NCBI GenBank assembly: GCA_000004695.1 | Contig: CM000151.3 | Location: forward strand, 6,208,001-6,272,000 | DNA length: 64,000 nucleotides | Direction of reading: 5' to 3' | Source of the DNA: Dictyostelium discoideum | Lineage: Eukaryota | In this document: piece after piece, positions 1,925 through 19,101 of the stretch | Position numbering within the stretch: the first letter of the stretch is position 1 | How the letters are laid out: each line of letters opens with the position of its first letter | Translations under genes and position numbers: made by a program | The notes under the pieces: generated by a model | Databases searched by the model: none | The model's input: the letters and a program-made list of their open reading frames with translations, nothing else | Told to the model about the DNA's origin: nothing

Positions 1925-1941
1925 AAAAAAAAAAAAAATTA

Positions 1942-1949
1942 TCCCACAA
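1942..1949 (+). promoter_or_regulatory. DUSE-like motif TCCCACAA (Dictyostelium upstream sequence element of ncRNA genes)
   Basis: Exact match to the [AT]CCCA[CT]AA consensus, about 60 bp upstream of the GC-richer terminal-stem element at 2007-2094. Confidence 0.45.
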
Positions 1950-2006
1950 AATATAAAATATTATAAGTTTAAGTATTTTTTGATTAAATTTTAATAATAA
2001 TTCCCA

Positions 2007-2094
2007 AGGCTCCTTTACAACAATCTTAAACAAAATTAAAATTCTTACAAAAAATTTAAATCAAAATCAAGGACCCCCATATCCTGGAGTCTGT
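2007..2094 (+). ncRNA. Candidate small ncRNA (Class I-like): 5'/3' terminal stem, internal CCTTTACAACAA motif, followed by T-run
   Basis: 5' GGCTCC pairs with 3' GGAGTC. CCTTTACAACAA resembles the Class I 11-nt motif CCTTACAGCAA. A T10 run starts at 2097. DUSE at -60. No ORF. Confidence 0.4.
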
Positions 2095-2314
2095 TATTTT
2101 TTTTTTTATTAAAAATAGTTTTTTTTTACCACTATCACCTACAACTTTTTTTTGGGGAGTGCACAAATAATAAAAATTTAAAAGTAAAAAAAAAAGAGAA
2201 GAACCCACCAGCGGTGTATATAATTATTTTTAACCACTTCAATGCTGAAATTTTTACTTTTTTTTTTTTTTTATTTTTTTTCAAAATTTAAAATTAACTA
2301 AAAATTTAATTTAA

Positions 2315-2322
2315 ACCCATAA
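2315..2322 (+). promoter_or_regulatory. DUSE-like motif ACCCATAA
   Basis: Matches [AT]CCCA[CT]AA. About 58 bp upstream of the GC-richer element starting near 2378. Confidence 0.45.
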
Positions 2323-2377
2323 ATAAATCCTTATTCAAATACAAAATTGAATTTAAGATTTTTTTATTATTATTTTA

Positions 2378-2471
2378 TTGGATGGTTGGAGAGGAATTGT
2401 ACGTGCCATCCTGCAAACGTATCTCTAATGGCCAAGGTTAACGTATTGAGGGTGATTTCTCTACCACCATC
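2378..2471 (+). ncRNA. Candidate ncRNA of about 94 nt with a 12-bp terminal stem, ending in a poly-T terminator
   Basis: 5' GATGGTTGGAGAG pairs with 3' CTCTACCACCATC (two 1-nt bulges). The segment is the only non-AT-rich stretch here. T17 run at 2472-2488. DUSE at -58. No ORF. Confidence 0.4.
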
Positions 2472-2609
2472 TTTTTTTTTTTTTTTTATAAAAAAAAAGA
2501 TTATATAATTAAATAATTTTATAAAATTTTTAAAAAATCTAAGGAATTATTAATTTTTGAAAAATAAAAATAAATGTTTATTTAATTATTTGTGGATTAA
2601 TTTTGATTA

Positions 2610-3481
2610 TTAAACTTTTAAAACATTAATAATATCTCCAACTGAAATTTCAGAACCATTAGCCTCATTTTCAAATTCTTGAATAAATTCAGCACCAAAT
2701 AAAAGACCACTATCAAATTTACGGAAAGTTTCTAATGTACGTAATGGTTCATTATCGTCATATGGATTGAGAACACCAGCATCGTAATCTACTGTTGTTA
2801 ATTTACATCTTGGACAACCTGCTGATAATTTCTTTAAAACTAATCCTGAAATATTGATTTTTTCCCATGTATCTTCTTCAAATGATTTATCACCAGCACT
2901 AACTAAAATATTTGGTCTAAATCTTTCCCATGTAAGTGGAGATCTTTGTTCTTCACCATTAGATTTACGAGTTTCAGAAATACGATTATTTAATTCAACA
3001 ATACTTGATTCTGATAAAATATTAGTTTGTGATCCATCACATAATGAAACTTGATGAATTTCTTCGGGTTGTTGTTGTTTTTTATCAATATAAACAGTAT
3101 CAACTTTTCTAGTGTAACTTCCACCTGATGCCATTGTTACTAATCTAACACCATCAATACCTAAATAATTTGAAAACCAAATACTTGGTTCTTCACCACA
3201 ATCTACTACATTTACATTATCTTTCCAAATTCCAACATTAATAACTTCCTTTCTACTAGTGTCATTAATTAAAACACGAAGTTCACTAGTGGTGTTATCT
3301 TTATCTTTAATAATTAACCATTTACCATCCTCTGAAATATTTGGTTGAATTAATGCCATTTTTGGTGCTTTTCTTTGAGTCATAAATCTGCCATTTTCAA
3401 TTAACATAAATCTTCTATCATTAACAAATCCATATTTATCCCATTTACATGATTTAACTTCAATTCCTTTACATGATTTAA
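2610..3481 (-). CDS. MOSC-domain protein (mARC / MoCo-sulfurase C-terminal-like), exon 2 of 2
   Basis: MOSC_N beta-barrel start (YP)IKSCKGIEV..DRRFML, and MOSC signature ...GCPRCKLTTVDYDAG...LRTLETFR. Acceptor tatag|TT at 3481. Phase matches exon 1. Confidence 0.8.
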
Positions 3482-3540
3482 CTATAATGATTTTTTCCAA
3501 AAAAAAAAAAAAAAAAAAAAATGTGTAAACATTAATATAA

Positions 3541-19028: not shown

Positions 19029-19101
19029 CACCCATTGTGGGTCTCGATCCCACGACCTGCAGCTTAGAAGGCTGCCGCAATTCCAACTTTGCTAAACGGG
19101 C
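19029..19101 (-). tRNA. tRNA-Arg (anticodon UCU)-like, 73 nt; possibly a diverged copy
   Basis: Cloverleaf GCCCGTT-TA-GCAA-AGTTGGAA-TTGC-G-GCAGC-CTTCTAA-GCTGC-AGGTC-GTGGG-ATCGAGA-CCCAC-AATGGGT-G. D-arm and anticodon arm are canonical, but the acceptor stem has 2 G-U pairs and the T-loop has A54 instead of T54. Confidence 0.5.

Follow-up and report, generated by a model that had tools for sequence, protein, structure and literature searches.

What is encoded by the two short, similarly built segments that lie on one strand of an AT-rich intergenic spacer in Dictyostelium discoideum? The stretch analysed here, referred to as the window (GenBank assembly GCA_000004695.1, contig CM000151.3, positions 6,208,001–6,272,000, 64,000 nt read 5′ to 3′ on the forward strand), is AT-rich with islands richer in GC. 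The spacer in question is 1337 bp long, is bordered on one side by a GTPase gene, and carries two octamers that match the upstream sequence element of Dictyostelium (DUSE), each followed by a short GC-richer body. A preliminary description proposed that these segments are two tandem small-RNA genes resembling the Class I RNAs of this organism. Our analysis indicates that this interval probably contains a pair of small-RNA genes, independent of each other and on one strand, the first being the Class I RNA gene DdR-65 (unit 1) and the second a different gene, a candidate for a hairpin RNA (unit 2). The pair is built on the dictyostelid plan, in which an external DUSE stands 57–58 nt ahead of the G at which the gene starts, the body is richer in GC than the AT-rich spacer around it, and a T-run acts as terminator.

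The features that define Class I RNAs have been set out in a published survey (Kjellin 2021, PMC7919456). They comprise a DUSE approximately 60 nt upstream of the gene, two conserved A residues followed by an invariant G, a 6-bp terminal stem, an 11-nt motif that adjoins the 5′ stem and is nearly invariant at T3, C6, C9, A10 and A11, and a CUGU end, the C of which pairs with the 5′ G. Many Class I genes also have T-runs downstream. These features allow the question to be put separately to each unit.

Results

The sequence of unit 1 at positions 2008–2093 agrees in every letter with that of DdR-65, a D. discoideum Class I RNA from the curated set, for which the published cmsearch match lies on the plus strand of chr2 (DDB0232429) at 6210008–6210093 (Kjellin 2021). 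We place the gene (DdR-65, ddi_can_357) at 2008–2094 (+). Its DUSE octamer, TCCCACAA at 1942–1949 (+), is the promoter element listed for DdR-65 in the same study, and it precedes G2008 by 58 nt (a distance of 57 in Tables S2 and S3 of Kjellin 2021). The termini likewise conform to the class, with AAG at 2006–2008, CTGT at 2091–2094 and a G2008–C2091 pair, and the six-bp stem formed by GGCUCC (2008–2013) and GGAGUC (2086–2091) is predicted in both the minimum free energy and the centroid folds. The resemblance to the Class I 11-nt motif that had been noticed in unit 1 is genuine: CTTTACAACAA at 2013–2023 carries all five near-invariant positions and is the sequence named for DdR-65 in the published motif table. 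A run of 11 T at 2097–2107 (+) is likely the RNA polymerase III (Pol III)-type terminator of this gene. Judged by its sequence, unit 1 is already known, a published and validated Class I RNA with nothing new in it.

DdR-65 is an atypically long, weakly expressed member of its class, the level of which rises during development. At 87–89 nt and 31% GC it falls outside the Class I range of about 60 nt and 32–41% GC, a range that is typical rather than strict, and the curated set includes other long members (DdR-64, -66 and -67, at 77–141 nt). Its predicted fold is of weak significance (−9.1 kcal/mol, z-score −1.4). Published read counts for DdR-65, which was validated by read coverage, are 135/166 at 0 h, 330/468 at 4 h and 500/577 at 8 h, an increase of approximately 3.5-fold by 8 h of development, while abundant Class I members reach 10^5–10^6 reads (Kjellin 2021).

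To compare the locus across genomes, orthologous regions were fetched with the proteins of the neighboring MOSC and GTPase genes as anchors; a RasGEF C-terminal query gave no usable anchors. The genomes were those of D. cf. discoideum ACTFIZ (L001) and ACTFIY (L005), D. citrinum (L128), and the D. discoideum isolates ACTFIW (L006, GCA_054859355.1) and ACTFIR (L007, GCA_054859385.1). In all five, the DdR-65 DUSE is conserved as TCCCAYAA, 57–59 nt before the G start, and the terminal stem is retained, with a single C-to-U change that converts one pair to U-G. Identity of DdR-65 to the AX4 sequence is 93–96% in D. cf. discoideum and 72–75% in D. citrinum. A small hairpin, GGAC...UCC, is predicted immediately before the 3′ stem of DdR-65 (2070–2085, +). 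At the same place in D. citrinum (L128 ~5759–5745), UAGGG-GAAA-CCCUA forms a hairpin from a different sequence, so that this 3′-proximal element seems to be conserved as a hairpin rather than as a sequence.

Unit 2 (2380–2471, +; approximately 93 nt with the first U of its tail) follows the same gene plan. The octamer ACCCATAA at 2315–2322 (+), a putative promoter element, is located 57 nt before G2380, within the 56–60 nt found for those Class I genes of D. discoideum that have no TGTG box (Kjellin 2021 data), and a run of 16 T at 2472–2487 (+) is likely a Pol III-type terminator. The positions of both octamers, the distance of some 58–60 bp from each to its GC-richer body, the T tract at the end of each unit and the pairing of the body ends, all put forward in the preliminary description, thus hold for both units, the last of these in predicted folds. 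The bodies were also said to contain no open reading frame, and those that overlap either of them are indeed trivial.

At the level of the RNA, unit 2 bears little resemblance to its neighbor. It has a GC content of 46% and is predicted to form a single unbranched hairpin of −30.1 kcal/mol, with a moderate z-score of −2.1 to −2.5. Its ends pair over 17 bp, interrupted by single-base bulges at U2387 and A2463, and the first U of the 16-T run pairs with G2380. The predicted elements are a terminal helix, GGAUG.../...CAUCU, a second helix and a long inner helix, together with a 9-nt loop on the 5′ side, UGUACGUGC (2398–2406, +), and an apical loop containing GGCCA (2430–2434, +).

The Class I reading proposed earlier for both units therefore has to be divided. 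It stands for unit 1 and fails for unit 2, and a tandem Class I cluster is refuted for the latter by three defining features, as judged from the sequences: no AAG is present (TT precedes the start), the 11-nt motif is missing, and the end is CAUCU instead of CUGU, in all four genomes that carry the unit. A cluster was a reasonable expectation, in that Class I genes often occur in groups of two or more, DdR-66 and DdR-67 on chr1 form another atypical long pair about 500 bp apart (Kjellin 2021), and unit 2 has Class I-like DUSE spacing, G start, paired ends and T-run. Nevertheless, its single long hairpin is not a 6-bp stem closing a loose loop, our own Class I covariance model found no match in unit 2 at E ≤ 10 with filters off, and the unit is absent from all candidate lists of Kjellin 2021 with covariance-model scores of at least 15.

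Both units are present in ACTFIZ and ACTFIY in the same order, on the same strand and with the same DUSE spacing. D. citrinum has the same tandem layout, in which TCCCACAA is followed by AAGGCTCCCTTACTGCAA...GGAGTCTGT for unit 1, and for unit 2 a stretch of 57 nt separates ACCCATAA from GGATGTT...AACATCTTTT. Overall, the unit 2 octamer ACCCATAA lies 57–58 nt before a G start in AX4, ACTFIZ, ACTFIY and D. citrinum, and the orthologs end in CAUCU followed by T-rich tracts (UAUUUUAUUUUUU, U8 and U4). Identity of unit 2 to AX4 is 74–79% in D. cf. discoideum and 62–65% in D. citrinum, indicating faster evolution than that of DdR-65. When the spacer was compared by BLAST with the D. cf. discoideum loci, only the two promoter-plus-RNA units and approximately 80 bp beside the GTPase gene were recovered; with D. 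citrinum, the DdR-65 unit alone was recovered. D. firmibasis and D. purpureum have neither unit at their MOSC loci, and the paralogous MOSC locus lacks both as well. In D. firmibasis the MOSC gene lies in a rearranged neighborhood without the RNA genes, and in D. citrinum (L128 3500–6000) no MOSC gene was called at the locus, which holds the GTPase gene and both RNA genes.

The four unit 2 orthologs (AX4, ACTFIZ, ACTFIY and D. citrinum), when compared with the loop motif constrained to be unpaired, share the same ladder of helices and loops. The first five terminal pairs, GGAUG/CAUCU, are invariant in all four; a GG/CC step and the second helix follow, then, on the 5′ side, a loop of 9–10 nt that includes ACG(G)UGC and has 0–1 base opposite, the long inner helix, and an apical loop that includes GGCCA (GGGCA in D. 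citrinum). The folds of the three orthologs from other genomes have energies of −32.1 (z −3.7), −33.6 (z −3.0) and −35.0 kcal/mol (z −2.05). Among the three close sequences, 90% of the aligned cells are standard pairs, compared with 37–46% in slid controls, and six pairs have changed on both sides, compared with 0–2. The helix closing the loop is GUUGA/UCAAC in D. citrinum and GGAAU/AUUUC in the others, and the terminal helix is extended by G-C and U-A pairs in AX4, by C-G in ACTFIY and by two U-A pairs in D. citrinum. Because the D. citrinum inner helix could not be aligned confidently base for base, it was taken as conserved architecture and was not counted as covariation.

When G-U pairs are counted, the conserved loop of each unit 2 ortholog is complementary to itself (GUACGUGC, GCACGUGC, GCACGUGC and GGUGCC, with the loops at 2398–2406 of the window, L001 7781–7773, L005 5813–5804 and L128 5011–5003), a property that would permit loop-loop dimerization. 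The palindrome CACGTG is present in the loop DNA of two of the four. A gene on the reverse strand at unit 2 was considered and rejected: the DUSE and the T-run are on the plus strand, the forward fold is the better one in all four orthologs, with four G-U pairs in each, and R2, a covariance model built from the three close unit 2 orthologs, scored much lower on the reverse strand.

Can the arrangement be ascribed to chance? The octamer by itself carries no information, as [AT]CCCA[CT]AA matches the window nine times against 10.5 ± 3.3 expected, a chance frequency. The preliminary description had named such a density of octamers, along with a lack of expression, as the finding that would tell against it, and the density of the octamer alone does fall at this level. 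Indeed, one of the nine (19035–19042) lies inside the 3′ part of a transfer RNA (tRNA) gene, tRNA-Arg(UCU) at 19029–19101 (−), which shows that a DUSE-like octamer does arise by chance. The combined layout is another matter: an upstream flank of 3–11% GC, a body of 30–43% GC beginning at about +58 and, starting some 148 nt past the octamer, a run of 11 or more T occur together at only two of the nine sites, those of units 1 and 2. In 5000 dinucleotide shuffles of the 1337-bp spacer, the mean was 0.21 octamers, and two or more fell on one strand in 1.1%. The earlier argument that a geometry recurring twice is not coincidental is thus sustained, with stronger support coming from the tandem pair in three other genomes.

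Unit 2 has been lost from part of the species. A segment of 302 bp at 2238–2539, containing unit 2 and its DUSE, is replaced by ~26 bp in ACTFIW and ACTFIR, in which DdR-65 and its DUSE are intact save for the one C-to-U stem change. Because unit 2 is kept in the outgroups, its absence from these isolates represents loss, and it must be dispensable, relocated or redundant in that lineage. The BLAST alignment of the spacer ends at window position 2236 in L006 and 2199 in L007, and in ACTFIR a 23-bp piece (window 2217–2239) is found in the opposite orientation (junctions at L006 5240–5270 and L007 5385–5407). The spacer is therefore structurally unstable among D. discoideum isolates.

These observations bear on the view that unit 2 is not a gene at all but a DUSE-like octamer that happens to stand beside a GC-rich imperfect palindrome, decaying or neutral, which gives rise to no discrete RNA. 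The chance frequency of the octamer in the window, the loss of the segment from two isolates and the silence of several DUSE-bearing loci (Kjellin 2021) are all compatible with it. However, it is hard to reconcile with D. citrinum, in which the octamer persists at its 57–58-nt spacing, along with a hairpin that keeps its GGAUG/CAUCU ends and loop motif, although BLAST otherwise finds only the DdR-65 unit of the spacer, or with helices that changed in sequence yet stayed paired. We consider this explanation unlikely.

The preliminary description suggested covariance-model searches as a check, and their outcome was mixed. Rfam 15, which holds Dictyostelium DdR small nucleolar RNA (snoRNA) families, was run on the whole window at gathering scores and on 107–750-nt slices of the four unit 2 orthologs at E ≤ 10. 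It matched neither unit; the sole pass in the window at gathering scores was the tRNA-Arg at 19029–19101. Our own Class I model gave 9.6 bits on unit 1 and, as noted above, nothing on unit 2. No small nuclear RNA (snRNA), snoRNA, signal recognition particle (SRP), RNase P/MRP or tRNA model in Rfam 15 matched unit 2, and the sub-threshold matches differ between its orthologs and look like chance. Assignment to tRNA or tRNA-Sec, or to box C/D or H/ACA snoRNAs, was rejected, as ARAGORN and Rfam returned nothing and no CUGA or ACA is found near the 3′ end; nor is unit 2 in the snoRNA supplement of Diesend 2022.

A hairpin of ~35 bp and ~93 nt might instead be a precursor that is processed by a Dicer-like enzyme into microRNA (miRNA)-like or other small RNAs, and the only weak Rfam matches were in fact to miRNA precursor models, which varied from ortholog to ortholog and stayed far under threshold. 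The miRNA supplements of Liao 2018 and Edelbroek 2024 contain none of six 13-mers taken from along the hairpin. Moreover, the two primary miRNAs tested in Liao 2018 have Pol II caps, while the unit 2 locus has a DUSE and a T-run, and conservation in unit 2 is highest in the unpaired 9-nt loop and not in a 21-nt arm. A Dicer-type precursor is accordingly very improbable.

Several results weigh against the view that the spacer holds two genuine genes, and they deserve to be considered together. For unit 1, our Class I model (R1), made from 31 other D. discoideum members and dominated by GTTGAC stems, gave only 9.6 bits (E 2.9, 14th in the window). It is therefore the published classifier (39.9 against a cut-off of 32; multi-species covariance model 22.4 bits), together with RNA-seq, that carries the membership of DdR-65 (Kjellin 2021). 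For unit 2, covariation among the three close sequences was not significant relative to column shuffles (55/500 and 52/500). The D. citrinum ortholog was not found by BLAST, having been recognized through its position, DUSE, termini and fold, and it scored weakly with R2 (7.7 bits, E 0.21 over 600 nt). The two isolates ACTFIW and ACTFIR lack unit 2 at this locus, and DdR-57, DdR-64 and r54 have correctly spaced DUSEs yet 0–2 reads (Kjellin 2021); a well-placed DUSE is no assurance that a gene is expressed.

Unit 2 is bordered on its right by a gene for a MOSC-domain protein (XP_643389.1 of strain AX4) at 2610–3500 (−). Between the two RNA genes, ACCCACCA at 2203–2210 is a DUSE with one mismatch, with no GC-rich or structured segment at +58, and the middle island at 2130–2260 has no fold signal (z +1.1 and +1.3 on the two strands). 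Directly upstream of the DdR-65 DUSE, positions 1875–1938 consist of 48 A, TG and 14 A, and long A-runs are found there in the orthologous loci as well.

Discussion

On the sequence and comparative evidence, unit 2 is most likely a real DUSE-driven small-RNA gene with a Pol III-type terminator, belonging to an unclassified family. It fits a known kind, the DUSE-driven small-RNA gene, and none of the families tested. According to the mechanism that we propose, the DUSE would recruit the polymerase, which is probably Pol III because of the T-run, and the transcript would end in a short U tail. The paired ends may protect the RNA, the helices would serve as a scaffold, and the conserved unpaired loops might be where a protein or a second RNA makes contact. 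The chance, miRNA-precursor and vault/Y explanations are less likely than such a DUSE-driven gene.

That unit 2 is both expressed and undescribed is a more demanding proposition and no better than a tentative suggestion. A search of published paper texts for 14–15-mers of unit 2 found none in a relevant context, and a scan of metagenomes with AATTGYACGTGCYAYCCT returned 120 stretches, all of them chance matches with GC-rich or unrelated surroundings, none with a DUSE or the remainder of unit 2. In the 157 kb of Dictyostelium DNA searched with R2, no further copy turned up. A 2008 study by Larsson is said to have screened GC-rich islands carrying a DUSE. Kjellin 2021, Liao 2018, Edelbroek 2024 and Diesend 2022 do not include unit 2 in their supplements, and Larsson 2008 may well list the locus. 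In its fullest form, the proposal would be that unit 2 represents an expressed, undescribed family of Pol III-terminated, DUSE-driven hairpin RNAs confined to the D. discoideum/D. citrinum clade and kept beside DdR-65, with a self-complementary loop serving protein binding or dimerization; this, too, we regard as possible but doubtful. By analogy, such an RNA might be the partner of a ribonucleoprotein such as the vault/TEP1 particle.

If unit 2 is what it appears to be, it would add an RNA family to the short list of those driven by DUSE (snRNAs, SRP RNA and Class I RNAs) in a model organism, although it will be of limited practical use unless it proves to be expressed and to have a binding partner. 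Its conserved linkage to a Class I RNA that rises in development, within an otherwise diverged spacer, prompts one to ask whether the two are regulated together. In addition, the two wild D. discoideum isolates without unit 2, set against AX4 and the sister species with it, constitute a natural experiment.

Comparison with known systems places the two units differently. DdR-65 resembles DdR-21 and the other Class I RNAs in its DUSE near −60, AAG, 6-bp stem, 11-nt motif, CUGU end and T-run. It differs from them in length (87–89 nt against a median near 60), in its 31% GC and lack of a TGTG box, in a motif that deviates from CCTTACAGCAA at two of 11 positions, and in read counts 100–10,000 times below those of abundant members (Kjellin 2021). 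Unit 2 shares with Class I the gene plan, namely the DUSE spacing, G start, paired ends and T-run, while every hallmark at the level of the RNA is missing. Its external DUSE some 60 nt upstream is equally a feature of the DUSE-driven snRNA and other small-RNA genes.

In its overall form, unit 2 also recalls a wider group of small RNAs. Vault and Y RNAs are Pol III transcripts of approximately 90–110 nt with paired 5′ and 3′ ends, and they are bound by TROVE-domain proteins. Unit 2 is similar in size, in its terminal helix formed from both ends, its U tail, its Pol III-type terminator and its conserved loops with variable helices. D. discoideum possesses vaults, MVPA/B and a TEP1 orthologue (Q54CB5), and a vault RNA sequence from this species was not found in the literature searched, so unit 2 might conceivably be the RNA partner of a known ribonucleoprotein, for example a vault RNA bound by the TEP1 orthologue. 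However, the link is one of resemblance only. None of the four orthologs was matched by the Rfam Vault or Y_RNA model at E ≤ 10, and sequence similarity is likewise lacking. No internal box A or box B is recognizable, the nearest box B-like sequence, GGTTAACGTAT, differing from GGTTCGANNCC at five of nine specified positions. Furthermore, unit 2 was lost in two isolates that presumably retain vaults, and the 157 kb searched contains a single copy. We therefore give this identity only a slim chance and treat the likeness as an analogy.

A close parallel to the locus as a whole is the DdR-66/DdR-67 pair on chr1. There, too, two DUSE genes without a canonical TGTG box lie on one strand about 500 bp apart, and the RNAs, at 104 and 141 nt, are likewise long and show weak expression (Kjellin 2021). 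According to summaries of Hinas 2006, DUSE serves both Pol II and Pol III genes and closely related genes are often paired. DdR-66 and DdR-67 both carry the motif CTTACAGCAA and a CUG end, while in the spacer described here one of the two genes, DdR-65, has the Class I motif and terminus, and its partner is probably an RNA gene of a different kind.

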